64,000 bases of DNA from a virus (IMGVR_UViG_3300037400_003961:32001-96000); one strand, 5' to 3'; positions 7,551 through 45,792 are shown, counted from the first letter of the stretch. The notes: generated by a model not told the origin, from the sequence alone. Translations and numbers: made by a program.

Positions 7551-7592
7551 AAAAGAGGGCAGATGATTTAATCATTTGCCCTTTATTTTTTT
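7551..7592. terminator. Bidirectional terminator at a convergent junction
   Basis: agggcagatgat/atcatttgccct stem flanked by A- and T-runs. Confidence 0.7.
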
Positions 7593-7751
7593 ATATTTCT
7601 AATCCATACCATTATAAATTTTATTAAAACATTTTAAACATAATGGTTGCCATTTATTATTTTTAGTTAATCCAAACCATAACTATTCTTTTATAATTTC
7701 TTTTTTACAAATATCACATTGTATTATTTTATTTTGCTCCAGTTGAACCAA
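7572..7751 (-). CDS. Small CxxC...CxxC zinc-ribbon protein, 59 aa (2 TAG)
   Basis: GAGGAG RBS and TTG start inside the 3' end of dut. MVQLEQNKIIQCDICKKEIIKE*LWFG...PLCLKCFNK... Confidence 0.5.
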
Positions 7752-8169
7752 AACCAGAATCTCCTCGATTGGTATTAGAAAGTTCATCTACTTCATTAAA
7801 TTTCATTTCAATATATGGAAGAAGAATCATTTGAGCAATTCTTTCACCAGGTTCAATGCTTTGCATTTCATCAGTATCATTATGAAGTGCTACAATATAC
7901 TCTCCTCGATAATCTGAATCACAGATACCAGTACAATTTGCTGGGCGGAGACCGCGTTTAGTGGCAATACCTGACCGCGCATAGATTGCTGCAAAAGTTC
8001 CTTCCGGCAATTCAAAAGAAAGACCTGTTCCAACTTTTATAGTAGAATGAGGTGCAATATCAAGAATCTAATCAGTCGCCGCATATAGATCATAACCCGC
8101 CGCATATTCACTTCCTCTTGTAGGAAGTTTTGCAAATTCATTTAATTTTTTAACTTTAATATCCGCCAT
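7729..8169 (-). CDS. dut: dUTPase (trimeric), 146 aa, TAG at codon 34
   Basis: Motif I (AAGYDL) lies upstream of the TAG. RSG, GICDSDYRG, RIAQ and RGDSGFGSTG follow in the same frame. Confidence 0.93.
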
Positions 8170-8414
8170 TAGTCTACCTCATAATTAATGGTTACTGTAG
8201 AATCTGGTTCTTTAATATTATTAAAAATTTTGGTTAAAGAAAGTTTCCAATATTCATCAATAACTTCGCCTTTTGATTTTTGCTCTTTATGTTCACTTGT
8301 ATACTTGCCAAGAACATAAGACTTATCTGTTTTGGCTTCTTCAATGGCTCTTGTTGCTTCTGCTTCTGTATCAACTCTATAGGTTTCTACTGTACTAACT
8401 AAATATTTTGACAT
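8169..8414 (-). CDS. Hypothetical protein
   Basis: 81-aa ORF with RBS; its stop overlaps the dut start. Confidence 0.7.
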   Translation of the reverse strand: MSKYLVSTVETYRVDTEAEATRAIEEAKTDKSYVLGKYTSEHKEQKSKGEVIDEYWKLSLTKIFNNIKEPDSTVTINYEVD

Positions 8415-8433
8415 CCTTTTATCTCCTTTATTT

Positions 8434-8694
8434 TTAAATACACTTAATAATTAATTTATTTTCATTATATTTAGTAATTTCTTTTTCTTGAATCTGTCTA
8501 ATTAATCCTTTTGTAAAATGCTGCGCTCCAGATAAATCAACTTGATAAACATCATAAGTTTGAGATAATTCAAAAATAGTATCTGGTATATCATTTACTT
8601 TTGTTTGAACTATTTCAAGTTTATTTCCATCCTAATAAACATAAAAAGTTTGATATATATCAAAAGGATGAATAATTCCAATAATTTTTTTCAT
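8434..8694 (-). CDS. Hypothetical protein, 86 aa (1 TAG)
   Basis: RBS AAGGAG. MKKIIGIIHPFDIYQTFYVY*DGNK... ends at TAA. Confidence 0.65.
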
Positions 8695-8711
8695 AAAATA
8701 TTAACTCCTTT

Positions 8712-9098
8712 TTAACATTGGATTACCCAATCATCACAATTAAATAAATAATAAGCAAAAGCCTCTCCATCAATATTTAGCCAAATTTCCCAAGCATTAT
8801 TAATAGTGTTGGAGTCTTTTTCAATAGAAAGAATATTTCCTCTATTTTTAAGTAAATTAATAAGTTCTGTTACTGCAATTTCGCAAGGATTAGAATTTTG
8901 TTTTTCATATAAATGAAATACTGTAAAATCATGCCTTTCGCGGCAAAGTAACATCGCATAACCGTCTATTTGCCAATTAAACCATTCTTCGAGTTCTGGT
9001 TTAATTGAATTAATTTTAGATTTACTAAGTTTATTTTCTTTTGACATTATTTGTTTATTAAAATCATAAAGGGTTCCAAGTGAAACATTATTATCCAT
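8712..9098 (-). CDS. Hypothetical protein
   Basis: 128-aa ORF in the operon. Confidence 0.7.
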   Translation of the reverse strand: MDNNVSLGTLYDFNKQIMSKENKLSKSKINSIKPELEEWFNWQIDGYAMLLCRERHDFTVFHLYEKQNSNPCEIAVTELINLLKNRGNILSIEKDSNTINNAWEIWLNIDGEAFAYYLFNCDDWVIQC

Positions 9099-9110
9099 TA
9101 TATAATTCCT

Positions 9111-9590
9111 TTAACTAATTTTTTCTGCATATTGATTATCTGATGATAATTTTACACCTAATATTGAATCAAGATGTGGTTCTTGATTTGGAATGTATCT
9201 TCCATATTTAATAATAATATTTTCATATTGTTCAATATATTTTATAAGCCAATTAATTTCTTCTTTTGTATATCCTGTATAAATTACTATATCATCTAAA
9301 CATTTATATATTATACGAAGCCAACATATTAAATTCATAACGTCAGTAGGGGAATCAAAAGGTTCTAATCCTTGCATAATTATTGCTTTTGTAATAGGAT
9401 TATTAATATATCTAGTTAATAATTTATCATAATCTATTTCAATATTAGGTTCATTAACTAATGTACTATTTTGACATACTGATTGCCCACATTCCTTATC
9501 ACACTTAAAAGTGCAATAAGGAAATTCAATTATCATAGCTGGTTTTTTATAGTTTATAAAATCTTCATCAATTAATCCTTTAATTATCAT
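9111..9590 (-). CDS. nrdG: Anaerobic ribonucleotide reductase activating protein (radical SAM)
   Basis: CTFKC...C cluster, GLEPF, IVIYTGY, GRY and SSDNQ motifs; adjacent to nrdD. Confidence 0.85.
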   Translation of the reverse strand: MIIKGLIDEDFINYKKPAMIIEFPYCTFKCDKECGQSVCQNSTLVNEPNIEIDYDKLLTRYINNPITKAIIMQGLEPFDSPTDVMNLICWLRIIYKCLDDIVIYTGYTKEEINWLIKYIEQYENIIIKYGRYIPNQEPHLDSILGVKLSSDNQYAEKIS

Positions 9591-11508
9591 TTACTTTTTC
9601 CCATCTTCTCATATTATACTCTAGTTTTCTTTGAGTAGACCATGTTCTTACTGGAGTATAAAAACCAACAATTCTTGTATATTCAGTTGCTATTGCTTTT
9701 CCACAAACTGGACAAGTAGTTCCATAGAAAGCATGATTATCTTCACAACTTTGAATTTTTGTATTAAATGCAAAATATGTAACGCCTTGGTCTGCGATAT
9801 ATTTTACCATATTCCAAGCTTTATCAAAACTATCGAATGGAGCATCTATATTTGCATGTAAAATAGAACCTCCATTACAATAATGGTCAAATAAAGCTTG
9901 AATCTTAATTCTTTCTTGTAAAGTTGTTTTTATACCAAGAGGAATAAATTGATTTCCATAAAGTGGTAAATCATATATATTAGCATTTGGATAAAAGAAT
10001 TTATCTTTTTTCATCAACTTATCTGCGGCAGTCTCTCCTGGAATTTGTTCAGTATTAATTTTATAATCAGCACCAATTTTTTCAATAAACTCATCTGCTG
10101 TTGAATGAATTACATCAAAAATTTTTTCACCAAATTTAGAAGCTTCTTCTGTATAAAAAACATTACCAAATTCATCTTGTTTTGTATATCCAAAAGCTTT
10201 CATAGTTTCATAAATACCTAAAAAGCCAATTGTATTATATAAATGTTCAAAATCAATTAACTTATAACTATAGTTAGGAAGCAATCCTTTTTCAACATTT
10301 CTTTTAATAATATGTCTAACACAATCAAGAGCTTGTAAGCAAACAATTATTCTTCTTTCAAGTTCTTTAAGATATTCCTCTTCTGAACTGGTATCTAATG
10401 CTAATCTTGCTAAATTAATTGTATTTACTTTAACAGAACCAACCTTTAGTGCAGTTCCGCCAATAGAGTTAAAGTAGCCGAGATCTCTAACATTACTTTT
10501 TAATCTACAACAATTAGAAAGACTATTAACACTATCATCAACGAATAAATTACTATCAGACCATTTCATATTATGTTTAATTGCCCATTCTGCAAAATTT
10601 TTATCTACAAAATCATTATTTTGATATAATAAAGATATTGTGCTAACTGGGAATGTCATCATATTTTCAGAACGAATATCTGACATGGTTTTCATATATA
10701 ATTTTTGAAACTCAATGATTTCATCTTCATAATCAATCATAAAAGTCCCATCAGGAAAAGTACTACCGCCAAATAATGCTTCAAAATATGGTTTATCAAA
10801 TACAGATGTATTAGTAAATGCAGATTGAGATCCATCTCTTACATAAGGTTGATTTACCGCATAAATAAATCTTTGGAAATTTTGAATTGCATATTTTTCT
10901 GGATCGCCTTCCCAATATTTATTATCAATATCTTTCTTCCAAAAATAATACATATATGGAATTAAATTAGGTAAGCCAACCGCACCGGAAGTTCTATTAC
11001 TATTGTATGAGATAAATTCTTTTACAAAATCAACAAAAGTACCTAAATGCTGCGGCGGTTTTGCATTGAAATTCTTTCCTAAGAAGAATAATCCTCTTTC
11101 TGCAACTTCTTTTAAATCATATGCAAAACAATAACTTTTAAATGTAGATGTATCAGAATCATGCATATATAATGCACCAATCCATTCTAATTTTAACCAT
11201 TCATTTGCCGCCTTAAATCCATATTTCTTTTGCATTTCATAATGAATTTTATTAAATGCTAAAAGTTTTCTATGAGATTTTGGCATTTCATTTAATAGTG
11301 TTACAATATCCTTATGTGAAACATTTGAATTGCCATCAATACTAGCATCTGCGACTGTTGTTTCATTAATAAAATTACTAATAAAATCATTATATGATAA
11401 CTGTTCATCTGCAAAACCATTAATTTTTGCAATCTCAGTTCCATATTCAGCTTGCAATCTGTTGTATGCTGTTGTAAAATTTTTATTTAATCTAATTGTA
11501 ATATTCAA
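9580..11508 (-). CDS. nrdD: Anaerobic (class III) ribonucleoside-triphosphate reductase
   Basis: LYMHD, YCFAY, NCCRL, zinc ribbon and the TRIVGF glycyl-radical motif. Confidence 0.93.
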   Translation of the reverse strand: MNITIRLNKNFTTAYNRLQAEYGTEIAKINGFADEQLSYNDFISNFINETTVADASIDGNSNVSHKDIVTLLNEMPKSHRKLLAFNKIHYEMQKKYGFKAANEWLKLEWIGALYMHDSDTSTFKSYCFAYDLKEVAERGLFFLGKNFNAKPPQHLGTFVDFVKEFISYNSNRTSGAVGLPNLIPYMYYFWKKDIDNKYWEGDPEKYAIQNFQRFIYAVNQPYVRDGSQSAFTNTSVFDKPYFEALFGGSTFPDGTFMIDYEDEIIEFQKLYMKTMSDIRSENMMTFPVSTISLLYQNNDFVDKNFAEWAIKHNMKWSDSNLFVDDSVNSLSNCCRLKSNVRDLGYFNSIGGTALKVGSVKVNTINLARLALDTSSEEEYLKELERRIIVCLQALDCVRHIIKRNVEKGLLPNYSYKLIDFEHLYNTIGFLGIYETMKAFGYTKQDEFGNVFYTEEASKFGEKIFDVIHSTADEFIEKIGADYKINTEQIPGETAADKLMKKDKFFYPNANIYDLPLYGNQFIPLGIKTTLQERIKIQALFDHYCNGGSILHANIDAPFDSFDKAWNMVKYIADQGVTYFAFNTKIQSCEDNHAFYGTTCPVCGKAIATEYTRIVGFYTPVRTWSTQRKLEYNMRRWEKVNDN

Positions 11509-12229: not shown

Positions 12230-13692
12230 TTATGCTGAAATTCTTTCATGTTCCAATGTCATGTTTGAATTATTAACATTTACAATTTTATATAGTTGAT
12301 GTGTTGCTGTTGCTTTATATGTTTTTGCTACAAATGTATCTTCTCTTCTATATCCTGTTACTAAAATCTTAGTGCCACGAGAAAACCATCCTTTTTCTAA
12401 TACCTTTTTAGTTCCATCTGATTGAACTTCAGAGATTTGACGATTATACATTGCATAATATTCTTTAGTAAATTTAACATTTACAACTCCATCTGTTGTT
12501 AAAACTGTAACAGAGGCTTTTGTATTATCTTTACTAATAATTGTTCCTGCAATTTTATACAATTTAAAGATTGGAATATCTCTTCCAGTTCTTTTGATAA
12601 AATAATCTACTTCTGGTTCATAAGATAAATCAAAGAAATTAACAATTCCATATTGATGTTTATTAATATTGGTTAATTCATGTTCATGATAATAAAAACA
12701 TAAACTTTCCATTTCCCATGCGGAAATATTACCAATTGCATATTTATGCCATATTTCATTAAACAATAAATTATTATATTGATTTAATATTTCTTCTTGA
12801 TTTTCTTTTAACCAGTTTCTAGCCTCATCCATTTCCTTTTGATAAATTTTATCCCATTTTGTTTGAAGAATACAAGTAATACCATTTATTACATCTAATT
12901 CATTTAAATCAAAATATTGAGAATAAAAATTTAAAGAGCCTTCATCAAAAACATAATATTTACCGACTTTTTTATTATCTTTAAGAAACTTATTAAATAC
13001 AAATACTTGTTTTTGTTTATTTAACATTTCTGGAATTAATCCAGATTTTAATAAACCATTAAAGTTTTGTAGCGTTAATCGTTTCTTTGGATCACATATT
13101 AAAGATACATAATATGCCATAATAGCATATCTTGGATTATTTTTACAAATTTTTGAAGCCCATTTATTATCAACTTTATCAAATGCTCCAGATTTAATTA
13201 ATGAAATCATTTGAGTTTTATTTAATGGACACCTATTCATAAAATCAACAATTCCTGTATAAGGACGACCGCTAATAATTTGATCAATAACTGGTCCACC
13301 AATTTTATTGACTCCTTTTAATCCAAATAAGATTTCATTATTTTCTTCATCTGGTTCAAAACTAAATCCAGACTTATTAATATCAATTAATGATACTTTA
13401 ATACCTTTTGATGTTATATCACCAATAGCTTTTGCTAATTTAGAATAATCAGTAGTTTTTTCTATTTTCTTTTTTCCGCTTCTATCGGGTAAATCTTCAT
13501 ATTCATATTGCTCATAGTCTTCTTTTTCATATAAACTAACTATTTCAACAGTTTCTTTTTCTTCTTCTAATGAACCACTATTTACAATTAAACAAGCGGT
13601 ATTCCAATATATTGGATTCCAATGAGTTGCAATATAAAGAGTTTGAAATCCAATAAATGAATATGCAAGAGCATGAATAATTGAAAAACTAT
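12230..13692 (-). CDS. dnaE: DNA polymerase III alpha subunit, exon 2
   Basis: Splicing gives GGG T|AT AGT TTT TCA (G-Y-S-F-S-I-I-H-A-L-A-Y). HhH motif GLKGVNKIG and OB fold follow. Exons total 3975 nt. Confidence 0.9.
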
Positions 13693-13811
13693 CATGTTGT
13701 TCCATTGTTTCCAATGGCATAGACTATATTTTACTTTCTTATTAATAAGAAAGAACACCTTTTCCATCTTCGTATCAATAGAAGATGTACTCCCCTTCCG
13801 AGGGATAGTCG

Positions 13812-14639
13812 TTACAGGTTCGATAAAGGATATGATAAAGAATTATCTTTAAAAGTTTCACCAATTTTTATTCTTCTAACAGTTTCTTCAGAAGAATTAA
13901 CTATTTTTGCAATTTCTTTATTACTTTTATTTGTTGTTAATAATAATTCTTTTATTTTATCTGCTCTAAATTCATTTGCAGATTTTTTTCTTATAGGATA
14001 TGTTGGATATAAACCTTTTCTAAGTGTTCCTGCATTTATTTTTTTTACTGTTGAATATCCTATTCCTAATATCTATGATATTCTTTTTAATGATAAATCA
14101 GAATTTAATAATAAATCAATTAAATCATCATAATCATCATTACTTTTATAATATTTATATAATGGATAAGTTTCATTTTCATCATAAAAATAAATTCCAT
14201 TATTTATTGAAGAAATAAAAGATGATGAAATACAAAAATATTTTTCAATTTCATAATAAGAGATACCTTGTTTTATCCAATTTTTTAACATTTTCAATTC
14301 ATCATCACTTAATATTGAACTATATCCGCGGCGACCGCCACCTAAATCCATATTGTAACCGATTCCATTACCACAATAAGTATTTAATTCTTTAATCCAA
14401 TATTGTTCTCTTTTATTTACTTCATTTATATTATCTGTATATAAAATTTCTAATAAAGAAATTTCAAAATTTTCTTCTCCATATTCTCTAATTTTTTTAT
14501 GAATTAGATCATTATATGAAGTGGCTTTTGGATTAAAAGCGCAGGAACGATGCTATCTAATCCTTCTTTTATAATTATTCGTTTGTCCAACATATTTATG
14601 TTGATTAATTTTATTTGTATAACAGTAAATATAATACAT
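13812..14639 (-). CDS. Intron-encoded GIY-YIG homing endonuclease, 275 aa (at least 2 TAG)
   Basis: MYYIYCYTNKINQHKYVGQTNNYKRRIR*H...REQYWI...GYN; own RBS AAGGAG. Confidence 0.85.
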
Positions 14640-14742
14640 AATTAAATCTCCTTTATATTTATTTTACTGTTATCATATCCTTTAAAGTTTCCCACGGGAT
14701 TTTCATGACAACAGTAAGGCTACAAAATGTATCCCTCACTAT

Positions 14743-14782
14743 TATTTTAAAATTCCCCGTTAGCACTTAATTAATTTTGTCC
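14743..14782 (-). promoter_or_regulatory. Phage-specific motif copy inside the dnaE intron
   Basis: GGACAA aattaat TAAG tgctaacggggaa TTTT aaaata, upstream of the endonuclease ORF. Confidence 0.6.
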
Positions 14783-14843
14783 AAAAATTTTTAAGTACCC
14801 CGCTGATAAACGGAAAAGTGTTTAGGGGCAAGTTTCTTCGTTC

Positions 14844-17355
14844 ACCCCATCTGAGGACCAACACCGCATTCCCAAATATATTTACCAAGTGCTGGGCTTG
14901 ATGCTTTATTTAATACTTGTTGATGTAATTCAGGAATTTTTGCCATTTGTTTTTTACCAACAATTTTTCTTGCGGCATTTGCTTCTTTAAGCGTAAAACC
15001 ACAAATCTTTTCATCCATCAACATTCGCATTAACTGCTCCTGAGAAGGTGGCACTCCATAAGATTGCTTAAAATATGGTTCAACAGCTTTTTGTTCTTCT
15101 TTTGTTAAACCAGCTTTATCCATTTCTTGATACCATAAAGATAAATTATTCTTATAACGAATATATTTTTCCATTGGAGTTTCTGCACCTTTTTCCGCAG
15201 TCATAAGACGCATTAATCCATTGGCATCAGACATCTCAAGAATATTAGTTGGTTTAATTTTTTTAGCAGCTTGAGAACCAACTTCTGAATCAAACTGAAA
15301 AACATTTAATACACTATTTTCTTGCAACGCTTTCCATATATTCTTATCATCAAGTGGAAGAACTTCTGGATGAAAATATTTATTATAAACTTCTCTTAAA
15401 GTTAAATTACTATCAATTTTATTATATTTTTGAAGAAGCCTTATTCCTTCAACAAACTTATCTTGGACTTCTGTTACCAAGAAATCATACTTTGTCATGC
15501 CGCAAGCTTCACATTTATGAAGATCCCATTGTGTTATAATTTCACCTTTTGGAGTTTTCATAAAACATCCAAATTCATATGGATCTTCATCAAAAAGGAT
15601 AACTCCACTTGCATGACTAGAACGTTTATTTATAATTCCTTCTATTGCCATTGCAATATCTAAAAGACCAGGATATTGATTTATTTCTGTAATAAAAGGA
15701 GTAATAGGTTTTCTATCTTTATCCACATTCCCATATACAACATCTTTAAGCGGCCAGAGAAATCCTCTTTCACTTGGGATTAATGAAGATAAAAATTGAG
15801 CTGTATCTACGTCTATTCCGTCTGGAAAATCTTCTGAACGATAACCGCGGCAAGCGGTTAATACAGCAGATTTAGTTCCTTCCGTACCAAAGGTCGCAAT
15901 TAATGTACAACCAAGATTTTTTCTACTTAAATCATCAATGTCTACATTAAAATTTTGACCTCTTTCTTCTTTTATTTTTTGAAGAATTAAAGGACGTTTT
16001 GATGGACAGAGATCTAAATCTATATCGCCCAATTCAACACGTTCTTTGTTTAAATATCTCCAGAATGGAAGATCCCATTTAATTGGATCCAACTGGGTTA
16101 TACCTAAAAGATAATGATTTAAACCTGAACAAGATGAGCCTCTACCCGCACCAACTGTACTTCCACATTCCCAAAAGAGATCGACATAATGCTGAAGAGT
16201 AATTGGATAACTAAACATATTAGTTTCAAGTTTTTCACTAATAGTTTTTTTAATATCCGCTTCCTCTTCTAATCGAGAAAGATATTGATGATTATCTTTA
16301 TTAAGTTGTTTAAGTTTAATTAAACATTCATTTACCCAATATCGTTCATATTTATCTTTAGATATTTTCATATTATATAAATTTGGATATTGAGATAAGC
16401 TTTTATCTTCATATGGAATATAATCTTTAACTTCTACTTTTGGGATAGTTTGTTTATGTGCAATACTATAATTTTCAATTTTATTATAAATTTCATATGA
16501 ATTATTTACTAATTCATCATAATCTAATTCAGATGGAACAATATTTTCTTTTATATCATTTTCATCTTGAAGATATGTATATTCATAGAATGCATCAACT
16601 TCACGCTCTCCACCCTTTGAATTAAGATATGCTTTATGAACAAATCTATCTTCTTTTTTAAGATAATGAGCATCTGAACCAAGAACCATTTTACATCCAA
16701 ATGCGGCAGCTACAGATTTAAGACGTTTATTAACCGCAATCTGTTCGTTTGATTGACCCGGCGCACATTCAATATAAAAATCTTCACCAAAAAGTTTTTT
16801 ACACCATAAAATAAATCTTACAATATCATTATGAATTTCAGTAATGCTATTTGTATCATTGTGTTTTTCAGCTTTAATAAGATTTAAAACTTGTGAAGAT
16901 AGTTCTCCGCCAAGACAAGCAGTTGTTACAATCAAACTATTTGGATACTTATTAACAATTTCTTCAAGTTCATCATAAATTGTTGGAACTCTTTCAAGAC
17001 CTCTGTCCCAATAACTATTCATCCATGCTCTTGAAGATAATTCTCTTAATGCTCTAAAACCAGTTTTATTTTTTGCAATCAAAATAAAATGATAATATTT
17101 TTGCCCCATTTCTCTATTAGGCGTTAAGTATATTTCATTACCTAATGCAACTTTAAAATCTGGATATTCTTTTAAAATATCTTGAGCATAAAAATTTGCT
17201 TGTGGTGCTCCAGAAAGACATTCATGATCTGTTAAAGCAATTCCACTAAGTCCAATTTCAATTGCTCTATCAATGAGTGCTGGAATCTTATTAATACAAT
17301 CTAATAATCTTATATTTGAGAACTCTGAATGAGAGTGAGGTTCGAATCTTTTCAT
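14844..17355 (-). CDS. dnaE: DNA polymerase III alpha subunit, exon 1
   Basis: PHP domain (HSHSEFS, LTDH, SDAHY), GAGRGS, DIDLD, SSHASG, KYDFL. No in-frame TAG. Confidence 0.93.
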
Positions 17356-17854: not shown

Positions 17855-18298
17855 TTAAATTGGATAATTTAATTCCTTGCAATTTATACCATGTGAACAA
17901 AAATATTCTTGTAAATATTTTCTTTCACTACATGGATTATTTGGAGCCTCGTATACCATTAAAACTATAGTATCTTTATTAAATTTATTTAAACAAAATT
18001 CAAATGCTTTTATCATTTTATTAAAATCAACAGTTTCAAGTAATTGTTTATATTCTTGCATTGTAGGACAATTACCTATTAATATTTCTTTTTCTTCGCA
18101 GGGACAATAATGCGTACCTTGGGACTGGACTATAAGAGGTTCATAACGAAGCCCGCATATTATTCCTCTTTTATCTATATAATATTCTTTTCCTATTGGT
18201 GGACGGTACCAGTTTGGATCAGATAAACATGTGGAAACTGGTATCATCCATGATTTAAAATTACGAATTTGATAAAAATAAGAAGTCGCTATTTTCAT
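17855..18298 (-). CDS. Hypothetical protein (DUF488-like)
   Basis: MKIATSYFY...IVLMVYE.P...CSER pattern. Confidence 0.5.
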   Translation of the reverse strand: MKIATSYFYQIRNFKSWMIPVSTCLSDPNWYRPPIGKEYYIDKRGIICGLRYEPLIVQSQGTHYCPCEEKEILIGNCPTMQEYKQLLETVDFNKMIKAFEFCLNKFNKDTIVLMVYEAPNNPCSERKYLQEYFCSHGINCKELNYPI

Positions 18299-18299
18299 T

Positions 18300-18518
18300 T
18301 TACTACTGTTCTACTAGTTTAAATTTGGTTGTATAATATGTATTACAATATAAGCACTTTCCACTACCATATTTTAATTCAACGTTACCACTACATTTTG
18401 GACAAGTAATGGGATAAATTTCAGCTATTTCACATCGTAATTTATAAGTTTTTCCATTTATACAAATTTTACTAATATATCCATCACAGTCTTTTTTATT
18501 CATCTTTACCTTACCCAA
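18300..18518 (-). CDS. Small zinc-finger protein
   Basis: CPKC and CLYC; ends CAG-TAG-TAA. Start codon uncertain. Confidence 0.55.
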
Positions 18519-21637: not shown

Positions 21638-21666
21638 ATTATATCAAAAAAAGAAAGAATTGTCAA
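21638..21666 (-). promoter_or_regulatory. sigmaA-type promoter
   Basis: TTGACA-17-TATAAT with TG extension, upstream of recJ. Confidence 0.85.
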
Positions 21667-21679
21667 GTCAATTCTTTCT

Positions 21680-22777
21680 TCATTCTATGGTTATTCTATT
21701 TTTAAATAGTTGAATAAATTTATCTTTACCTTCATCTATTGGACTTGACTTATACTCTAATAAGTTATCTTTATCAAACATATATGAAATATTTACATAA
21801 TTACCATATTTATTATATAAAGTTTTTAATTTAGTAGTCCATTTTTCCCATTCTTTATCTCCAATTTTTTGAAATTGTTTATCTAAAGCAATAATAATTT
21901 CTTTAACACCAAGAGATAAAAGTAATTTAACTTGATAATTAATTAAATTACTACCGCAACATGCAACGCTAATATCATTATCTTGTCCAAAATAAGAAGC
22001 ATACTTAAGACAACTTTTTTCACCTTCAAAAACAATGGCTTTTTGAAATGTAGAAATTGCTTTTTTACTATTGTTGAGATTATAGAGTGAAAAACCGAGC
22101 GGATGATTGTACATTTTACCATTGATTACTGCTGGACGATATTTACCTTTTGTTTGTTCGTTTTCTTTTATAAGAGTTCTTTCTCTAATTCCAATAAGAT
22201 TTCCATCTATATCATAATGTGGAATTACAATGCCCTCATTAATAGGATCATAACATATTCCTCTTGATTCCATAACATTAAAAGTTATATCTTCCTTTTC
22301 CCAGGGAATGATGCGGGGATGAGGTAAATATCTTAATATTTTATTATCATAAACTTTTAATTCTATAATTTGTGGTTGAGTTTTTTCTTTGTTCCTTTTA
22401 AAATTATTAATGATTTTCCAATCTTCATTTGCTTCTTGATTATCTTCAAAATTAAAAGTTTCTGCTGTGTATCCAAAATATTTAGCAACAAAAATAATCG
22501 CACGAGATAAGGAAAAATTTTGAATACCAGCAGTTTTATTTACTCTTAATACTAAATCATATATATCAAATGAAGCATCTCCACATCCTGTATAACAATG
22601 AAATAGATGTGTATTAGGGTAATAATAAAGTTTATGACTGTCACCACCATGACAGATAGTTCTGGCGGTGAATATTCCATTTCCCATAATAGGTTCACCG
22701 CCCAATTCACTAACAAGATCAAATACTTCTTCTATTGTTAAGTTTTCTTTAAGAGTATTTTTATCATATTTATACAT
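21680..22777 (-). CDS. dnaG: DNA primase (zinc finger + TOPRIM)
   Basis: ICH...HCYTGC zinc finger, VFEGEKS and IIALD TOPRIM motifs. Confidence 0.85.
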   Translation of the reverse strand: MYKYDKNTLKENLTIEEVFDLVSELGGEPIMGNGIFTARTICHGGDSHKLYYYPNTHLFHCYTGCGDASFDIYDLVLRVNKTAGIQNFSLSRAIIFVAKYFGYTAETFNFEDNQEANEDWKIINNFKRNKEKTQPQIIELKVYDNKILRYLPHPRIIPWEKEDITFNVMESRGICYDPINEGIVIPHYDIDGNLIGIRERTLIKENEQTKGKYRPAVINGKMYNHPLGFSLYNLNNSKKAISTFQKAIVFEGEKSCLKYASYFGQDNDISVACCGSNLINYQVKLLLSLGVKEIIIALDKQFQKIGDKEWEKWTTKLKTLYNKYGNYVNISYMFDKDNLLEYKSSPIDEGKDKFIQLFKNRITIE

Positions 22778-24984: not shown

Positions 24985-25028
24985 AATTGAACTCCTTTAA
25001 ATTAGATTTTGGAATTATTCCACTATCT

Positions 25029-25068: not shown

Positions 25069-25069
25069 A

Positions 25070-34022: not shown

Positions 34023-34106
34023 AAAATCATCTCCTATATATTTTTCTATATATATTATAATATATTTTTTTATAAAAAACAAGTGAAGGATATAAATATC
34101 CTTCAC

Positions 34107-36995: not shown

Positions 36996-37384
36996 AAGTA
37001 GCCTCCTGTGAGTGTTGTTGAATAAATCTTTTTCTTGGAAGAATTTGAGTTCCCATTAAATCATCAAATAATTTATCTGCTGCTGTAATGTCTTCTACAG
37101 TTACCTGTTTAATAATTCTTTTATCTGGATCTACAAGAATTGAAGTTTCGTCTGGTGACATTTCTCCGAGTCCCTTAAGTCGATTAACAAGATACTTCTT
37201 TCCCTTATGACTAGTTCTATATTTTTCAAGTTCTGCATCATCTTTTAAATAAATATAAGTATCTTTACCTTCTGTAATTTTATAAAGGGGCGGAACTCCT
37301 GCATATACATATCCATCTAAAATTAATTGTGGACAGAATGTCCATATAAAGGTATAGAATAAATTCTTAATATGACTTCCATCG
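36985..37384 (-). CDS. gyrB: DNA gyrase/topoisomerase IV subunit B, exon 2
   Basis: Splicing gives GAC GT|C GAT GGA (DADVDGSHI). PPLYK, RLKGLGEM and LMG..PRK follow. Exons total 1923 nt. Confidence 0.9.
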
Positions 37385-37521
37385 CGTGTTATTCTTATGT
37401 TTCCATAAGCACTGACTATCTTTTACTTATCATTAACATGATAAGGAGACCATTTCGAACTGCGTATCAATAGCAGCCCTACTTCCCCGCCCAGAAGGCA
37501 ATGGGAATAGTCGATACAGGT

Positions 37522-38235
37522 TCAAATATTAATCCATTTCTTTTCTTTCTTTTTATAAATAGGAAGTGTTGAATAACTTCTTCCCCAAAGCATAGCTTGA
37601 AATGTTTGATAGGATACTCGATTTTTATAATCTTCATAAATTTGTTTGGCGGTTTCATTTACATATCTATGTCGAAGTTGAATAACCTCTTCATTGGTAA
37701 ATTGAGCTGAAGCTCCATTTCCGCCTTGTGAATTTTGATAAATATAATATTGTTTATTTGCTTCTGTAAAAACTTCTGGCATAATATACGACCAAGACCT
37801 GCCTTGCCAAAGATTTTGAAAATAACCAAAAGAAATTTTATTTTCAAATTCTTTGTACACATCTTTTTGGCGCTAATGATTGGCATATGCTTGTCTAATT
37901 CTAATAACATCCTTTTCTGTTAATTTAACATTAGGATTATGACTTCCAATCAAATCTGTTAATCCGCCTTCATTTTTATTACCAGATTTTGTAGCATTTA
38001 ATTTATTTATCCAATATTTTTCTTTATCATTTAATTCATCTATAGAACATACTTCTAATACTTCAAATAAAAAAGCATCTTTTCCTTTATTAGTTATCTA
38101 ATCATCAAAAGGAATACGTGATTGTTTTGATGTTTTATATATATGTTCTTTAAATCTTCTATCTATATCATTTGATTGTCCAACATAAAAATTTGTTGGA
38201 TCGTTTTTTTCTGTAATTTTATAAATTCCTATCAT
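37522..38235 (-). CDS. Intron-encoded GIY-YIG homing endonuclease, 237 aa (2 TAG)
   Basis: MIGIYKITEK...FYVGQSNDIDRRFKEH...EKYWI; own RBS GAGGAG. Confidence 0.88.
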
Positions 38236-38353
38236 TTTTTATTCTCCTCAATTATTATTGAAAGAGAATGAATTAATATTTGTTTCCCACGGGATTTCCA
38301 TGCCATTTTGGTTTAGGATTCCCCGTTAGCAAAAATTCTTTTCTCCTTCATAT

Positions 38354-38393
38354 TATATGAAAAATGTACATATCACATAATATAAAGTTGACC
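38354..38393 (-). promoter_or_regulatory. Phage-specific motif copy inside the gyrB intron
   Basis: GGTCAA ctttata TTAT gtgatatgtacat TTTT catata. Confidence 0.6.
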
Positions 38394-38447
38394 AAAAATT
38401 TTTACCCGCTTGATTAAGCGAAAAGTCTTTCATACGCCGTGTTACTG

Positions 38448-39970
38448 ACGTCAGCATCGGACTCAATTATAATTTTCCCATAACGAAGGTCTTCTTTATT
38501 ATATGTCAACTTCATTGTTTTCATATCAACAGTAAGACCAAAAGCGTCAATCATTGTCATAATTTCAGCATTTTTCTGAATTTTATCAAGTGTTGCTTTT
38601 CTAACATTAAGAATTTTTCCGCGGACAGGCATAACCGCAACAAATTCATTATTGCGAGCTAGTTTTAAGTTTCCTGAAGCTGAATCTCCCTCTGTTACAT
38701 ATATCTCACATTTCATGCGGTCTTTAGACCAGCAATCCGCTAATTTACTATCAAACTTTAAAGCTTTTTGCTTCTTTTTATTCTGCTCTCTTGCTTTATC
38801 TCTTGCCTTTTTAGCTGCATCTCTTGCCTTACGAGCAGCTGTTGCTTTTTCAAAAATATTTTTTACTTCTTTTTCATTATTATTGAACCAAATATTAAGA
38901 TTAGTTGTTAATGCAGAAGTAAAAGGTGACATATCAATTTTTGTAATTCTACTTTTAACCTGTGCATCATATCCAACATTAGGCGCTGTAATATTAAATA
39001 CTACATACATTCCCTCTTGAATATCATCACCAGTTAAATTAGCATCTTTATCTTTTAACCATTTTTTTTCTTTAAAAAATTTATTAAATTCTCTTGTGAT
39101 AACTGTTTTAATTTGTGTAATATGCGGACCAGAATCAGTAAGACCAGTGTTTACATATGGAACAATAGTTGAAGAATAATTACTTGTATATGTAAAAACC
39201 ATATCAAGTTTATTTTTACCTTCTAAAAAATTCATAGAAAAACGATTTGTGATAAGTTCTGTATCTTTAACAGCTTCATCCACTAAATCATTAATACCTT
39301 TTTCAGAATAATATCGAGTATAATTTTCTATTTTCATTCCATCTTTATTTAAAGTTGTAAAATAAAGATTAATTTCTAATCCTGGGCAAAGACAAACAAT
39401 AGTTTTAAATAAATCTTTAATTTTGTTAATTTCAACTTCAGTATGTGTAAAAAATTCTTCTGAAGGCTGCCACTCGACCAATGTTCCTGCAATCCCACCA
39501 GCACCAGAAGTACGGGTTTTAAAAACACCTTCTTTAAATAGGATTTCTTCCCATTCACTATTTCTTATTGTTTTTACTCTAAGCCAATGGGACAAAAAAG
39601 TTGTAATTTTTGAACCAATACCAAAAGAACCAAGAGAGGTTCCTTCATATGTTCCATCTTCTCTATATTTACCAGATGTATTTAATACACTAAATGCAGC
39701 TTCAAGAATGGTTTTACCATCTTCTCTATATGAATTAGGAATAAAACCTTGACCATAATCCCTAACAGAAACTGTATCATCAACAATATTTACATCAATT
39801 TTATTTCCATGTCCAAGTCTATATTCATCAACAGCATTAGAAATAATTTCTATCAATAATTGAGTTGAATATGTACAATCTCCTGCATACACTTGCGGAC
39901 GAAGTCTGGTAAATTCAAGGGGCGAGAGACTTTCGATACTATCTTCTGTGTATAAATGTTTATCATTCAT
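38448..39970 (-). CDS. gyrB: DNA gyrase/topoisomerase IV subunit B, exon 1
   Basis: GHKL ATPase (EIISNAVDE, DYGQG), EGDSA, PVRGKILN, IIIESDAD. Confidence 0.92.
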
Positions 39971-40084: not shown

Positions 40085-41368
40085 TTAAATTTTAAATTCA
40101 TAATCTTTTTCTGGTAGAACTGCATTAAGCACAACACCAAGAATTGCCGCAATAGCTAAACCAGTTAATGTAATTGTTGCAGGGCCAATATTAAATGTAA
40201 CTCCGCCAACAGAACTAAATCCCAATCCACTTACAAACATTGTTGCAATAACAATTAAATTGCGGGATTTGGTTAAATCAACATTGTTCTCAACCATATT
40301 TCTAACGCCAACAGCAGAAATCATACCATAAAGAATAAAACTAATTCCTCCTATAATTGCAGTTGGGATAGAATTAATCAATGCCGCAAATTTTGGAGAG
40401 AAAGATAAAATAATTGCAAAATATGCTGCTAATCTTACTACTCTTGGGTCATATACTTTTGATAATGCTAATACGCCAGTATTTTCTCCATATGTCGTAT
40501 TTGCGGGTCCTCCAAATAATCCAGCGAATGAAGTTGCAAGACCGTCACCAATTAATGTTCTATGAAGTCCGGGGTCTGAAATGAAATTTCTTTTTGTTGT
40601 AGAAGAAATTGCTGAAATATCACCAATATGTTCCATCATTGATGCGATTGCTATTGGAGCCATAATAATAATTGAAGTAAAATCAAATTTTGCAATTGTA
40701 AATTTTTGTAATCCAATAATACTTGTATTTTGTACTGCACTAAAATCAACTAATCCTAAACATAAAGCTGCAAGATAACTTATAGCTATACCAAGTAAGA
40801 TAGGAACAATTTTAATCATTCCTTTGCCCCAAATGTTAGCTATAACAATTACTACAATAGCAAGAGTTGCTAATCCCCAGTTAGTTGACGCATTTGAAAC
40901 AGCACTTCCTGCGAGATTTAATCCAATCATGATAATCATTGGACCAGTAACAGTAGGTGGAAAATATTTCATTACTTTTTTAGTTCCAAGTGTTTTAAAC
41001 AATAGAGCTAAAACTAAGTAGAGTAAACCAGCAATTACAATACCACCAAGTGCATATGCAAGTTTATCGTCTGGAGTCATTGTTGCATATTTACCTGTAT
41101 TTAATGCGGAAACCGCCTGAAAACCGCCAAGATATGCAAATGAAGAGCCTAGAAATGCGGGTATCTAAAATTTAGTACATACATGAAAAAGTAAAGTACC
41201 CAAGCCCGCAAATAATAAAGTTGTTTGAATACTTAGCGGTAATCCATAACTTTGCACTAAGATAGGAACTAATACTGTTGCTCCAAACATTGCAAATAAA
41301 TGTTGAAAACCCAAGGTTAACATTTTTGGAGTACCAAGCTATCTAGCATCATAAATTTCTTTTTCCAA
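40085..41368 (-). CDS. Uracil/xanthine permease (NCS2, UraA/PyrP family), 427 aa, 2 TAG
   Basis: [31 protein letters not shown] and NTTYGEN signatures. TTG start at 41368; TAG at 41339 and 41165. Confidence 0.9.
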
Positions 41369-41392: not shown

Positions 41393-41421
41393 ATTATACC
41401 AAAAAATTTTAAATTTAGCAA
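41393..41421 (-). promoter_or_regulatory. sigmaA-type promoter
   Basis: TTGCTA-17-TATAAT with TG extension. Confidence 0.65.
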
Positions 41422-41915
41422 GTTATGACAACATGATTCTTTAGTATGATGTCAGAAAATTTAGACTTGTTCATAGTTGCAAGTGCATCTGCAAGTTCAT
41501 TACCTATCATACCTTTATGACCATCGACTTTAATTATATATATTTGATTTATGAAAAAATTTATATTATAATATTCATATAAAGATAAAATTATATCTAA
41601 ATTTTTTATTGTTTCATTTTTACTATTTTTCCAATTATTTTTACTCCAAGAATAAATCCAAGAATTGAGGATATTAACGCAATATGCAGAATCAGAATAA
41701 ATAGTTGCTTGTTGATTTTTATATTTGGTATTTAATAATTCAAATGCTTTTAGAAATGCTTTTAATTCCATTTGATTATTTGTTACATTGTGAAAATTTT
41801 CACAATAAGCATCAATTAAATGATTATTATTATCAAAAATTACAATACCAAAACCGCCCTATGAATTCTATTTACCATTACCGCGACAAGAACCATCTAT
41901 ATAAATATATAACAT
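41415..41915 (-). CDS. rnhA: Ribonuclease HI, 166 aa (TAG at codons 16 and 19)
   Basis: YIDGSCRGNG, TNNQMEL, YSDSAY, KVDGH, GNELADALA. Confidence 0.9.
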
Positions 41916-42035: not shown

Positions 42036-43472
42036 TTATCTTAAATATTTTTTAGAGCAGAACCCAGTATATTTACCATATACAACATAATACCAATCTC
42101 CAGTATAATAGCCATAACAGGTAACTTTACTACCATCTGGCATAACTGTAATAATTGGTTTAGATAAACTTGCCCCTGACCGCAATCTTAAATTTGCTGT
42201 TGTAGTATATGTTTTAGCAATATTTTTATTAAAAGATTGAGCATAATCAACTTTTATTGTAGATGGAACAGCAGGTGGATTTATTGTTGTAGGAATATTT
42301 CCAATAGTAGATGTTTCTTTTTGCTATTGTTTTGTTCCATATTTAGGTTTTGCATAACCGCGAATATATCCATATCCAATTGGAATAGTTCTACGACCAA
42401 CCTTTCCACCATTCATGTTACCTTCAATAACAGTTATATTATTGCCGGATACAGATTCAACCATTCCAATATGATCTGCATATCCATTATTTGGTTGAGT
42501 TGTATCATCCCAGTTATAAGTAATTAAATATCCTTTTTCTGGAACTATTGTACCATCTTCTTCCCAGATACCAGCTTTTTTAAATAATGCGATATGATTT
42601 TCAACACCACATTCAGTTCCACCAATTAAATTTACTGCATTTAATTTAATAAAAATCGCACTAATAGTGGTATCGCAATAAGCATCTTTATAAGTTACTT
42701 TATAACCTCTTGCTCTTGGTGTATAATTATTATAAGTATCAATAATTACTTTATGAGTACCTTCAGAACGAGATAAACCAATCCATGATCTAAAAATATT
42801 TAAAGCGTCATCTGCGGTAACAGTATTATCATTTTTATTATCTACGATTACAGCTGGCTATGGTTTAGCTATTGTATTATTTAACATTGTTTCGTCAAAT
42901 AAATAATTCATATCAACATATCCATTAATGCCATTAATTCTTCCTGTTGAAGTATATTGTTGCATGGCACATGGATAATCGGGGGCACCCGCATAATCTG
43001 CTAACCAAATTGGATATTCTGAAAGTTGATTCCAATCATAATAGTTTTTATAATAATCAGTATTAGTATAAATAAAAAGTTTTTTACATCCAAGAGATTT
43101 TAATACATCTAAATACTATTTTGTATATGCTGTACATTTTTCTCTTGTACAAACTTCTTTATTTTTCTTCCAAGTATCATATTCAAGGTCTACAGCAATC
43201 CATGTATCTATTGGATTCAAACCAGCTTTTTTAATATTATCAAATGTTGCTTCTGCATTTTCTTTAATAGTTGCTCCATTAGTATAAACAAAATGATATA
43301 CCATAATAGGAATATTATTATTTTTACATTCTTTCACATATTCAATAAATTTTGAATCTATTGCTTTTCTATAACCCTATCTTAGAACAATAAAATCTAC
43401 TTCTTTACTATTTTTTACTTTTTTAAAATCTATATTTCCTTGATGATAGGAAATATCAATACCTTTTAACAT
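42036..43472 (-). CDS. Endolysin: GH25 muramidase + CHAP + SH3b, 478 aa (at least 4 TAG)
   Basis: GIDISYHQG, AVDLEYD, QQYTSTG..GINGYVD; CHAP residues YCDTT and HIGMVE..IEGN; C-terminal SH3 (LRLRSG..WLYV..TGFCS). Confidence 0.9.
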
Positions 43473-43483
43473 ATAAACCTCCT

Positions 43484-43759
43484 TTATTTACTTTTAGGTT
43501 TAGGTTTATCATATGTCATTGCTAATTTACTATCAGTTAAGCCTTCTGTTGTTGGGTCATTAAGTGCATTCCATACTGAAACGGTAATTAAACCTAAAAC
43601 GTAAGGATTTTGAATTGCTTCAACAAAGACTTTTCCTAATATTGCCCAAGATGTTAAATCTTGAAATGTTAGTCCGGCATATGTTAAAATTGGAACTAAA
43701 ACTGAAAGAAAAATTTGAACAATAAAAACAGGATTTTTAAATCTTACTTTAAAATTCAT
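43484..43759 (-). CDS. Holin (phi LC3 family)
   Basis: MNFKVRFKN...two TM helices...DPTTEGLTDS; immediately upstream of the endolysin. Confidence 0.85.
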   Translation of the reverse strand: MNFKVRFKNPVFIVQIFLSVLVPILTYAGLTFQDLTSWAILGKVFVEAIQNPYVLGLITVSVWNALNDPTTEGLTDSKLAMTYDKPKPKSK

Positions 43760-43901: not shown

Positions 43902-44204
43902 TTAAGTAATAATTCCATTCTTTTTAAGATTACCCCTAAAGATTCTATAAGGTTCTTTTCTTTCTCCATTCTCATCAAAATTATGATATTCCATTTCTAA
44001 TTTAAAATCTTCATAATTATAATCAGTATACATAGGACGGATTTCCACATGATTCCAATCTTTTCCGCAATAAATGCAATATAATTTTTTTAAATGACCA
44101 GCTTCGCGATAACGTCCAGATTTTCGACTAATGGGGACACCTTCACGCCCACAGTTACAACAAAACATTCTTGAAACTGAAAAATCATCATTTTTTCTTC
44201 TCAT
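43902..44204 (-). CDS. Zinc-finger hypothetical protein
   Basis: CCNCG...GHLKKLYCIYC. Confidence 0.65.
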   Translation of the reverse strand: MRRKNDDFSVSRMFCCNCGREGVPISRKSGRYREAGHLKKLYCIYCGKDWNHVEIRPMYTDYNYEDFKLEMEYHNFDENGERKEPYRIFRGNLKKNGIIT

Positions 44205-44312
44205 AATAATACACTTCCTTTCTTTTTATTTAATTTTTCTATATATATTATAACAAAAAATAAATAAAAAAACAAGGTAGCAAAAAATTACTACCTTGTA
44301 TAAAATATAATA

Positions 44313-44516
44313 TTAATTATTTGTAAAATTATCTACAAACTCTTCAATAGCTAAAAGCATTTCAGTATCTTCAATATAGAAAATATCTGTATAATATTTA
44401 GTATAATACCAAGAAATAAAATTTAAAATAAACTGACCGAATCTCCAATCATAAAGTTTTTTATGGTTTTCTCTGAGTCCATCATAAAATTTATAAAGTC
44501 TATTAATATCTCTCAT
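44313..44516 (-). CDS. Hypothetical protein
   Basis: MRDINR..DWRFGQ, a small phage protein pattern. Confidence 0.65.
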   Translation of the reverse strand: MRDINRLYKFYDGLRENHKKLYDWRFGQFILNFISWYYTKYYTDIFYIEDTEMLLAIEEFVDNFTNN

Positions 44517-44528
44517 TATTTTTCCTTT

Positions 44529-44768
44529 TTATTTTAAAAATTCTTTAGCTTCATCATAGGTTAGTTGCAATCCACATGTATAATCATTAAGATATAAAAA
44601 TACTCCATCATCATCTTGTACATAAAAATACCATTCTCCTTTTTTATAAAGATGTGTTGGGGTTTTTATATCTTCTTTAATGCAAACCATATGGTTTTTC
44701 AACATATTACGAAGTAATTCTATATCAGTAATTTTATCTAAATCCATTAGGTATACCTCTTTTTTCAC
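44529..44768 (-). CDS. Hypothetical protein
   Basis: ORF in the early operon; start probably at MDLDK. Confidence 0.55.
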   Translation of the reverse strand: MKKEVYLMDLDKITDIELLRNMLKNHMVCIKEDIKTPTHLYKKGEWYFYVQDDDGVFLYLNDYTCGLQLTYDEAKEFLK

Positions 44769-45165
44769 AATATGTTTTTATGATATTACTAGAATCTGAT
44801 TCTTTAATTCCACTACATAAAATTTTTTCATAAAGATTATAAAAACAAATATCTAAATATGTATTATCCATTTTTTCTTTATAAATTTCATCATATGATA
44901 GATAGTCCCAATCTGGTTTAAGACTGGTAATTTTTTCCCATACTGAATTCATTGTGCGGTAGCCACGAAAATTCATTTCAGTTCGTACCACTCCCGCATA
45001 ATTAATAAAATGATCATAATCATAATTTAGAACAAAATTAACTAAAATATTATTTGGTGTTCCATTTTTTTGAATAGCTCCTGCAATAGCTGATAATTCT
45101 CTCCATTGAGCAACAAGCTGTTCTCGTGGAAGCACTGAAATAAAATCTTTATGCCATAATCTCAT
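44734..45165 (-). CDS. Pyrimidine-dimer DNA glycosylase/endonuclease V-like protein
   Basis: MRLWH...LPREQLVAQWRE...EMNFRGY signature. Confidence 0.75.
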   Translation of the reverse strand: MRLWHKDFISVLPREQLVAQWRELSAIAGAIQKNGTPNNILVNFVLNYDYDHFINYAGVVRTEMNFRGYRTMNSVWEKITSLKPDWDYLSYDEIYKEKMDNTYLDICFYNLYEKILCSGIKESDSSNIIKTYCEKRGIPNGFR

Positions 45166-45168
45166 TAT

Positions 45169-45351
45169 TTATACCTCTTTAAAAATTTTAATAAAAATAA
45201 TAATAAATATGATTAATACAATGATACCAATCCAAAGAGGCCACAAGACAACCCACCAACTCCAATTAATAACTCCAGTTAATTTTAAAACAATATTTAC
45301 AATCAAAAGCAAATCAAAAAAACTAATTCCTCCATATGTAATATGTTTCAT
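45169..45351 (-). CDS. Small membrane protein
   Basis: LKLTGVINWSWWVVLWPLW; two TM helices. Confidence 0.7.
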   Translation of the reverse strand: MKHITYGGISFFDLLLIVNIVLKLTGVINWSWWVVLWPLWIGIIVLIIFIIIFIKIFKEV

Positions 45352-45366
45352 AATAACCCTCCTTTT

Positions 45367-45792
45367 TTAAAATAAGTAAGCAATTGCCGCAACATATTTT
45401 TCTTTTAGTTTTTCTGTAAGAGTTTCAGTTTGTGCAAAATGGTCGTATATATCAGCAAGTTTTACAATATATGCGGGCATATAGTCAGGATTATTCTTTG
45501 CCATTGAATGAATTTTTTCAATATATTTATTATAGTCTTCATCTTCTTCTCTTGTTAAAAGAGAAAGATTTTTTTCAAATTTTTCATCAAACCATGTGTT
45601 TCTTTTTATATCTGTATCTTCATATAAATCATGTGCTAAACCAAGCTGATAAACAAAATAATAAGTTTCATAAGGTAAATTAAAAAAATTAGTAATTTTT
45701 CTGGCTTTATCAGCGACTCTTTTTGTATGTTCAAAAGTTTCTTTATCATAATATAAATTACATAATTCTAATATAGCATTATTTGTCATCAT
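45367..45792 (-). CDS. HD-domain hydrolase (RelA/SpoT hydrolase-like)
   Basis: H..RVA, LAHDLYEDT, LLT, VKLAD motifs. Confidence 0.7.
   Translation of the reverse strand: MMTNNAILELCNLYYDKETFEHTKRVADKARKITNFFNLPYETYYFVYQLGLAHDLYEDTDIKRNTWFDEKFEKNLSLLTREEDEDYNKYIEKIHSMAKNNPDYMPAYIVKLADIYDHFAQTETLTEKLKEKYVAAIAYLF

Follow-up and report, generated by a model that had tools for sequence, protein, structure and literature searches.

The viral DNA stretch IMGVR_UViG_3300037400_003961:32001-96000 belongs to a rumen phage with a genome of about 133 kb in which the stop codon TAG serves as a sense codon, and the feature examined here is the uneven distribution of in-frame TAG codons among the genes of its replication block. 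The window is this whole stretch of 64,000 nucleotides, corresponding to bases 32001-96000 of a 132,737-bp virus record rated as 99% complete; positions refer to it unless marked as genome positions. The G+C content is about 28%. The genome carries 23 tRNA genes, one of which has a CUA anticodon, and long open reading frames (ORFs) are restored throughout when TAG is read as sense; in particular, RecJ, the endolysin, the portal, the tape measure (2861 amino acids (aa), 45 TAG), and others are full-length only on TAG read-through. A Bacillota host is indicated by the endolysin architecture (GH25 + CHAP + SH3), by choline-binding repeats, and by the closest relatives in culture, which are large Enterococcus and Geobacillus siphoviruses with a TerL about 39% identical.

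Related loci in IMG/VR number 34, and eight relatives (G001-G008), five complete or nearly so (88-100%) and three fragments, were fetched; seven of these are recoded and, together with the reference phage of the window, make up the eight recoded genomes considered below. The remaining one, G006, uses the standard code, with no in-frame TAG in any ortholog and with 9 of 80 long ORFs ending in TAG. Since its orthologs are syntenic with those of the reference (protein identity 44-53%) and devoid of in-frame TAG, the TAGs therefore arose in place after recoding.

Distribution of TAG codons in the replication block

The named genes were checked for family with Pfam and PHROG profiles and for TAG content. 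The genes without in-frame TAG are the following:

4752-5762: virion protein, 336 aa, TAG-free in the reference
9111-9590, minus: NrdG-like protein (weak Fer4_12 Pfam match)
9580-11508, minus: NrdD anaerobic ribonucleotide reductase (Pfam NRDD, 6.6e-92)
12230-13720, minus: DnaE exon 2, C-terminal part, 496 aa (Pfam HHH_6)
14842-17355, minus: DnaE exon 1 (PHP, pol III alpha, fingers), 837 aa
18506-19687, minus: SF1 (RecD-like) helicase
21680-22777, minus: DNA primase (PHROG 47, 2.3e-34)
24947-26335, minus: DnaB helicase exon 1
32052-34106, minus: NAD-dependent DNA ligase, TAG-free in all genomes
34107-36446, minus: GyrA, TAG-free in all genomes
38414-39970, minus: GyrB exon 1
43484-43759, minus: holin, paired with the endolysin

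The genes that carry TAG are the following:

7729-8169, minus: dUTPase (Pfam dUTPase, 6.8e-30), TAG codon 34
13812-14639, minus: GIY-YIG homing endonuclease in the dnaE insertion (Pfam GIY-YIG), TAG codons 29 and 189
19825-21603, minus: RecJ-like exonuclease, 592 aa from ATG 21603, TAG codons 49, 237, 293, 407, and 580
24163-24984, minus: LAGLIDADG homing endonuclease in the dnaB insertion (Pfam LAGLIDADG_3), 7 TAG
26946-27986, minus: Sak4-like annealing ATPase (Pfam AAA_24, PHROG 124), TAG codon 10
30695-31612, minus: membrane-anchored coiled-coil protein with a C-terminal GIY-YIG domain, 7 TAG (2-17 in 12 orthologs)
37522-38235, minus: GIY-YIG homing endonuclease in the gyrB insertion, TAG codons 46 and 121
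40085-41368, minus: xanthine/uracil-type permease (Pfam, 4.6e-89), TAG codons 10 and 68
41415-41915, minus: RNase H, TAG codons 16 and 19
42036-43759, minus: endolysin GH25-CHAP-SH3, together with the holin, TAG codons 32, 119, 205, and 383
59621-60109, minus: RuvC-like resolvase, outside the block (PHROG 827, 1.9e-22), 6 TAG including codon 19

This check bears out the TAG status given to every named gene by the first-pass annotation, apart from SSB, which had been counted among the TAG-free genes and of which no family member (PF00436) was found in the genome. The 1324 aa reported for DnaE corresponds to the spliced length (~1324 aa), the gene being split here into two exons; in six relatives it is a single uninterrupted ORF of 1318-1376 aa. 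The identity of RecJ is given by Pfam DHH (1.3e-12) and RecJ_OB (2.4e-6), by PHROG 2484 (4.8e-134), and by 806 homologs at E <= 1e-30, and its true start is the ATG at 21603, where the homologs begin. In RuvC the motifs LSLD, EEV, and NDDxADA are conserved, while Pfam RuvC and RuvX score only below the cut-off. The permease is an accessory gene with no ortholog among the eight relatives.

The three homing endonucleases lie in insertions that split dnaE (13721-14841, 1.1 kb, holding the GIY-YIG gene), dnaB (~23925-25069), and gyrB (~37162-38413). In each case a conserved gene, uninterrupted in most relatives, is broken and a GIY-YIG or LAGLIDADG ORF lies inside the break, as in introns that house endonucleases; in G001 and G007, an insertion in dnaE occupies a different site (after codon 433). 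Core-like strings common to the insertions flank their ORFs; no Rfam match to a group I ribozyme core was found at gathering score or at E <= 0.5, and the inserted ORFs may break the model.

The comparison of TAG counts per gene with the codon expectation, which the first-pass annotation had proposed on Glu and Gln codons, was carried out on Glu-type codons; an initial null with TAG as Gln was replaced since ortholog columns showed Glu, which is the right null. When the 35 block TAGs are re-dealt by permutation among the 834 Glu-type codons of 45 block genes, heterogeneity among genes is evident (chi2 148, p <= 2e-5), with 33 TAG-free genes vs 23.6 expected. Replication across relatives is stronger evidence than this permutation that the distribution is not due to chance. 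Pooled over the eight recoded genomes, the ratio of TAG to Glu-type codons is 0/420 in DnaE exon 1, 0/199 in the helicase, 0/215 in the primase, 0/271 in DnaB, 0/399 in the ligase, 0/421 in GyrA, 0/274 in GyrB, and 0/457 in three neighbouring genes of unknown function, for a total of 0/2656 in these ten replisome-set genes. The same ratio is 46/315 in RecJ, 77/262 in the membrane GIY-YIG protein, 23/99 in the endolysin, 9/168 in Sak4, 7/74 in dUTPase, 7/60 in RNase H, and 41/100 in RuvC, the highest in the genome (0.41). Late genes have about 0.2-0.3 TAG per Glu-type codon, with structural and lysis genes enriched vs the zero of the replisome. Across the 34 related loci, no TAG occurs in orthologs of DnaE (n = 16), the helicase (n = 24), or DnaB (n = 22), one of 28 primase orthologs carries a single TAG, and 30 of 31 RecJ orthologs carry from 1 to 10. 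Conservation of the early TAGs in related phages, indicated as a check in the first-pass annotation, holds for RecJ, where column 60 is TAG in 23/32 sequences, and for RuvC, whose codon-19 TAG is kept in seven of the eight recoded genomes, and fails for RNase H, as discussed below.

The TAGs had also been described as often N-terminal. They do lie within the coding sequence, given that residues with a catalytic role or under conservation are encoded before them and that no other start codon is available after them; in RNase H, the catalytic Asp7 is upstream of TAG codons 16 and 19, and in Sak4 there is no start codon from codon 10 to the Walker A motif. In block genes, the median relative position is 0.34 for TAG columns and 0.54 for columns with Glu only (p 7e-4), i.e., TAG is shifted towards the 5' end, and late structural genes show the same shift (0.45 and 0.53, respectively, p 1e-4); the preference for N-terminal positions is therefore a property of the whole genome and not specific to nucleases. 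No TAG excess was found in the last codons of genes (8 seen vs 7.9 expected).

Reading of TAG as glutamate and the suppressor tRNA

On the evidence of aligned codons and of the suppressor tRNA, TAG is read as Glu and not as Gln, every test favouring the former. Within the family, ortholog columns with TAG are dominated by GAA and GAG, and the column-weighted profile of TAG partners (E 0.42, K 0.14, Q 0.125) fits the Glu profile better than the Gln profile by 24 log units. In RecJ, compared with 115 full-length standard-code homologs at 32-50% identity, the 33 TAG columns give log-odds of +36.8 for E, +5.3 for Q, +1.0 for D, and -1.1 for K; at ORF codon 314, in particular, TAG is found in 15 family members and E in 106/115 homologs. 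Over 557 genome-wide TAG columns, G006 has E in 196 (35%), a 4.4-fold enrichment vs 1.8-fold for Q, and its partners of the reference TAG codons are E in 36% and Q in 6% of cases. The catalytic motif of RuvC is EE in G006, G001, G002, and G007 and TAG-TAG in the reference, G003, and G005, the catalytic Glu pair being written with TAG in 4 genomes. Pipelines that annotate with code 15, in which TAG is Gln, would place Gln at catalytic Glu positions such as these.

The tRNA able to read TAG lies outside the window:

genome 124239-124314 (L039:10640-10715), minus: suppressor tRNA(CUA)

It is found once in each of five near-complete relatives and, in the reference, two genes away from a phage tRNA-Glu. 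Its architecture is tRNA-Glu-like: the D stem has three pairs, the variable loop has four bases, and G1 pairs with C72. No consistent isotype emerged when the suppressor was compared by raw similarity with the tRNAs of the phages themselves, and the decisive result came from scanning bacterial genomes with the acceptor and D-arm pattern, which has 125 matches; of these, 117 overlap a tRNA gene, which is tRNA-Glu in 115 cases and tRNA-Gln in none. The suppressor thus carries the acceptor and D-arm signature of the Bacillota tRNA-Glu from which it derives, and its charging presumably falls to the host glutamyl-tRNA synthetase. Neither a phage release factor nor a Glu/Gln-tRNA synthetase was found in the genome. 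A literature search found no paper reporting TAG as Glu in a phage or bacterium.

As regards the other codons of this kind, the G005 record carries at 90222-90296 a tRNA with a TTA anticodon (ochre suppressor type), with no sign of widespread in-frame TAA. The RecJ gene of the standard-code G006 (record 59389-61194, minus) has one in-frame TAA at a position that is Lys (AAA) in the family, which could be due to an error in sequencing or to disruption of the gene, or could be a single read-through site.

Promoters of TAG-bearing and TAG-free genes

A generic sigma-70 scan returned no more sites than shuffled sequence, and only correctly placed intergenic sites matching 10-12 of 12 positions were used. 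The sigmaA-type sites in front of TAG-bearing genes are the following:

21666-21638: recJ promoter, 12/12, TTGACA-17-TATAAT with TG extension, overlapping the primase terminator hairpin (21638-21681, minus)
60163-60135: ruvC promoter, TTGACA-17-TACAAT with TG
41975-41946: rnhA promoter, 10/12, extended -10
41421-41393: permease promoter, 10/12, extended -10

The placement of these four genes behind host-type sigmaA promoters, already claimed in the first-pass annotation, is thus substantiated by 10-12/12 or near-consensus sites. The recJ promoter recurs in five of seven relatives (12/12 in G003, G004, and G008, 11/12 in G005, and 10/12 in G007) and the ruvC promoter, at 10-12/12, in all six recoded relatives, while in G006 recJ and ruvC have no promoter of their own and directly follow the upstream gene. 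Extended -10 promoters are also present at gyrB, at the helicase, and at other TAG-free units; in fact, among 98 intergenic extended -10 sites with a downstream gene in six genomes, 79 genes are TAG-free, and those that recur among the TAG-bearing remainder are recJ and the gene that opens a late operon.

The association with sigmaA does not extend to all TAG-bearing genes. A second motif, TTGGWCAAA, often followed by ATTAA, occurs in the same six genomes at 20 intergenic sites, with TAG present in 17 of the genes that follow (Fisher 4e-8), and may represent a promoter specific to the phage. Its sites in the window, all on the minus strand, are the following:

11797, minus: TTGGWCAAA site
14784, minus: TTGGACAAA motif, dnaE insertion
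25070, minus: TTGGACAAA motif, dnaB insertion
38395, minus: TTGGWCAAA site
43892, minus: TTGGACAAA motif, holin-endolysin pair, with a hairpin

In the window, each of the three homing endonuclease genes, and likewise the holin with its endolysin, lies behind this motif and not behind a sigmaA promoter; the motif is also found at genome 22140, 25827, and 113620 (113612-113620), upstream of late operons. Sak4 and the membrane GIY-YIG gene stand directly behind terminators and dUTPase stands within an operon, none with its own promoter. The TAG-bearing genes can therefore be divided into a sigmaA-type group (recJ, ruvC, rnhA, and permease), a TTGGWCAAA group (endonucleases and lysis pair), and a promoterless group (Sak4, membrane GIY-YIG, and dUTPase).

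Outside the window, genome 3000-16500 contains some two dozen strong consensus promoters (CTTGACAAA, 14 bases, TGnTATAAT) in front of small, mostly TAG-free genes and is likely the immediate-early region. The first gene of the late operon, also outside the window, is the following:

L037:86-1198 (genome 18686-19801): sigma-like protein, 371 aa, 7 TAG

This gene has a perfect sigmaA promoter and carries 5-9 TAG in relatives. Its product matches PHROG 5767 ('sigma factor') at 4.7e-44, while no match was found in Pfam, PDB sequence, or Foldseek PDB searches. The predicted model has a pLDDT (predicted local distance difference test score) of 62, and its best fold match is sigma-H (3mzy_A, Z 7.5, root-mean-square deviation 3.3, 76 aligned residues), followed by several sigma region-4 chains, all at Z < 8. 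The protein is possibly a TAG-gated late regulator, which is to be taken as a lead rather than as an established result; should it prove to be a late sigma factor, late transcription too would depend on the code switch.

A candidate translational gate and its alternatives

The reading preferred here, which is considered reasonably probable, is that TAG codons keep cutting, recombination, and lysis proteins incomplete until the phage suppressor works, while the replisome would be readable at once. At infection the host would read TAG as stop, and full-length products would come only from TAG-free genes, namely the small early genes, the replisome, and the nucleotide-supply enzymes, which purifying selection would keep TAG-free; the remaining genes would be free, or selected, to carry TAG. 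Since the phage provides the suppressor and no other decoding aid, TAG-bearing mRNAs at time zero would yield only truncated peptides, and full-length yield would then rise with the suppressor, approximately as the efficiency of suppression at one codon to the power of the TAG count. Within the replication module, the genes set apart in this way would be RecJ, RuvC, the membrane GIY-YIG protein, Sak4, and the three homing endonucleases, to which RNase H and dUTPase are added in some genomes. Given that recJ and ruvC lie behind their own near-consensus host-type promoters, the TAG codons are the only visible brake on their early production; truncated RecJ and RuvC would end at codons 49 and 19, respectively. 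Early transcription with delayed full translation, as advanced in the first-pass annotation, is thus a plausible time course, and the delay may plausibly be adaptive, for recJ and ruvC, whose promoters are conserved; it does not extend to RNase H as a rule, since few relatives share its TAGs. A wider and more tentative proposal, possible although doubtful, is that the code switch acts as a master timer via TAG as Glu: recJ, ruvC, and the sigma-like regulator would be transcribed from the start by host RNA polymerase at their consensus promoters and completed only after the suppressor accumulates, and translation would set cutting, recombination, and the late programme. Many TAGs, with one or two at the catalytic Glu pair of RuvC, would make such a switch steeper.

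Several observations weigh against a gate. The Glu-Met-Sup tRNA cluster has an 11/12 sigmaA-like promoter 20 nt upstream, and the suppressor can therefore probably be made by the host polymerase from the start; the gate would then consist in its accumulation and the delay would perhaps be of minutes. A perfect sigmaA promoter also precedes the TAG-rich late operon, whose first gene keeps this promoter and has no TAG in G006, and hence such a promoter is no proof of early-only transcription. TAGs in RNase H are confined to 3/8 recoded genomes (the reference, G008, and G002), and TAG presence also varies among relatives for Sak4 (0-2) and dUTPase (0-3), a variation compatible with both tolerance and selection. 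RecJ (0.15) and Sak4 (0.05) have a lower TAG density than late genes, in which it is about 0.22. Finally, late major virion proteins are almost TAG-free, with 0-3 TAG per 74-187 Glu-type codons (pooled, 3/187 in the 355-aa capsid-region protein, 0/74 in the 193-aa protein, and 2/151 in the 336-aa protein), and therefore abundance also shapes TAG use.

The variable presence and position of TAG in RNase H, Sak4, and dUTPase, the lower density in RecJ and Sak4, the 5' bias common to late genes, and the fact that most TAG columns are variable columns are all accommodated by the main rival, tolerance without function, in which constraint is simply relaxed: TAG would be barred from genes required before the suppressor works and neutral elsewhere, and RecJ, RuvC, and the others would have drifted with no regulatory role. 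This explanation is rated as unlikely; drift is opposed by the top TAG share of RuvC, which includes the catalytic Glu pair and a codon 19 so widely retained, by the recurrent TAG at RecJ column 60, and by the dedicated consensus promoters that recJ and ruvC have in recoded genomes and lack in G006.

The near absence of TAG from abundant virion proteins is what would be expected if TAG were decoded less efficiently and abundant proteins avoided it, the replisome being TAG-free through high expression. That TAG counts follow from expression level alone, which the first-pass annotation had named as an objection, is very improbable, because the avoidance in the replisome is absolute, while the abundant virion proteins still show an occasional TAG, and the TAG-free set holds low-copy enzymes such as DnaE, ligase, gyrase, and primase, as well as dozens of small early genes behind consensus promoters; abundance still matters for the virion proteins. 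Least probable of all is that the TAG-bearing block genes were imported, TAGs included, the source being either the late region or recoded phages of another kind. A mobile origin accounts for the three endonuclease insertions, without counterpart in dnaE, dnaB, and gyrB of most relatives, and for the permease, which lacks orthologs, but not for RecJ, RuvC, Sak4, the membrane GIY-YIG protein, dUTPase, and RNase H, which are syntenic core genes, TAG-free in G006.

A translational gate as preferred here can be compared with known systems. In gut and rumen phages it is established that recoded stop codons are concentrated in late and lysis genes and that the replication module is in standard code; recoding in replication genes has been called 'variable' there, and the partition is described module by module (Ivanova 2014; Yutin 2021, PMC7886860; Borges et al., bioRxiv 10.1101/2021.08.26.457843). 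Like those phages, the reference has a phage suppressor tRNA(CUA), dense TAG in structural and lysis genes, and standard-code replication machinery, and the role proposed there is likewise a translational gate on late functions; unlike in them, the partition separates individual genes of a single replication block, the products of the genes with TAG there are nucleases and recombination proteins, two of which have a consensus promoter of host type to themselves, and TAG is apparently Glu. Those papers contain neither a split between individual genes, nor the link with nucleases and recombination proteins driven by host-type promoters, nor a Glu reading of TAG. Code 15 (TAG as Gln) has been validated in crAss-like phages (PMC9523058) and assumed for phAss-1 (PMC10607447); the movement of TAG from stop to amino acid via a CUA-anticodon tRNA is common to both, but neither the alignment of TAG with Gln nor a tRNA-Gln-derived suppressor is found here. 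phAss-1 is a distant relative (TerL 28% identical, genome of 136 kb, predicted host in Clostridia), and its suppressor tRNA is unrelated in sequence and without the tRNA-Glu signature. UAG as Glu is known in ciliate nuclear codes, namely the peritrich code 30 and a ciliate with UAA as Lys and UAG as Glu (PMC10553269). The codon and its new meaning are the same, but the genomes concerned are nuclear and eukaryotic, and the codon is used throughout them without any switch in time. In phage T4, translation of the endonucleases of the td, nrdB, and sunY introns is delayed though the intron RNA is made early, and the delay is attributed to RNA structure and late promoters. As in T4, where the interrupted genes are early ones for nucleotide metabolism or replication, endonuclease genes lie here in intron-like insertions and would be translated with a delay; unlike in T4, the visible brakes are TAG codons and the upstream TTGGWCAAA motif.

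So far, recoding in phages has been interpreted as a coarse switch between early and late genes or as a gate on lysis, whereas here a sharp, conserved line runs through a single replication module: the copying enzymes are readable by a naive host, and the resecting, resolving, homing, and degrading enzymes are not, even behind host-type promoters. If the gate exists, it would provide a simple rule for when a phage allows nuclease activity, would make temporal classes in uncultured recoded phages predictable from sequence alone, and would be a natural example of a multi-codon translational timer.

Some minor features complete the description. A 171-aa ORF at 17855-18370 with apparent TAG-TAG at codons 19-20 was discarded as a TAG-bearing gene, these codons being non-coding and upstream of the true ATG (codon 25); the true gene is TAG-free, likewise in relatives. 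After the helicase gene, at about 18300-18503 (minus), there is an unannotated zinc-ribbon ORF of about 66 aa that ends in TAG and then TAA, i.e., with TAG as stop within a TAG-free unit and a back-up stop one codon on; its TAG and TAA bases are those that look like TAG-TAG in the frame of the over-extended 171-aa ORF. At genome 113793-115319, adjoining the tRNA array, there is a TAG-free 508-aa protein with DUF2828 and DUF7788, which is conserved in relatives.

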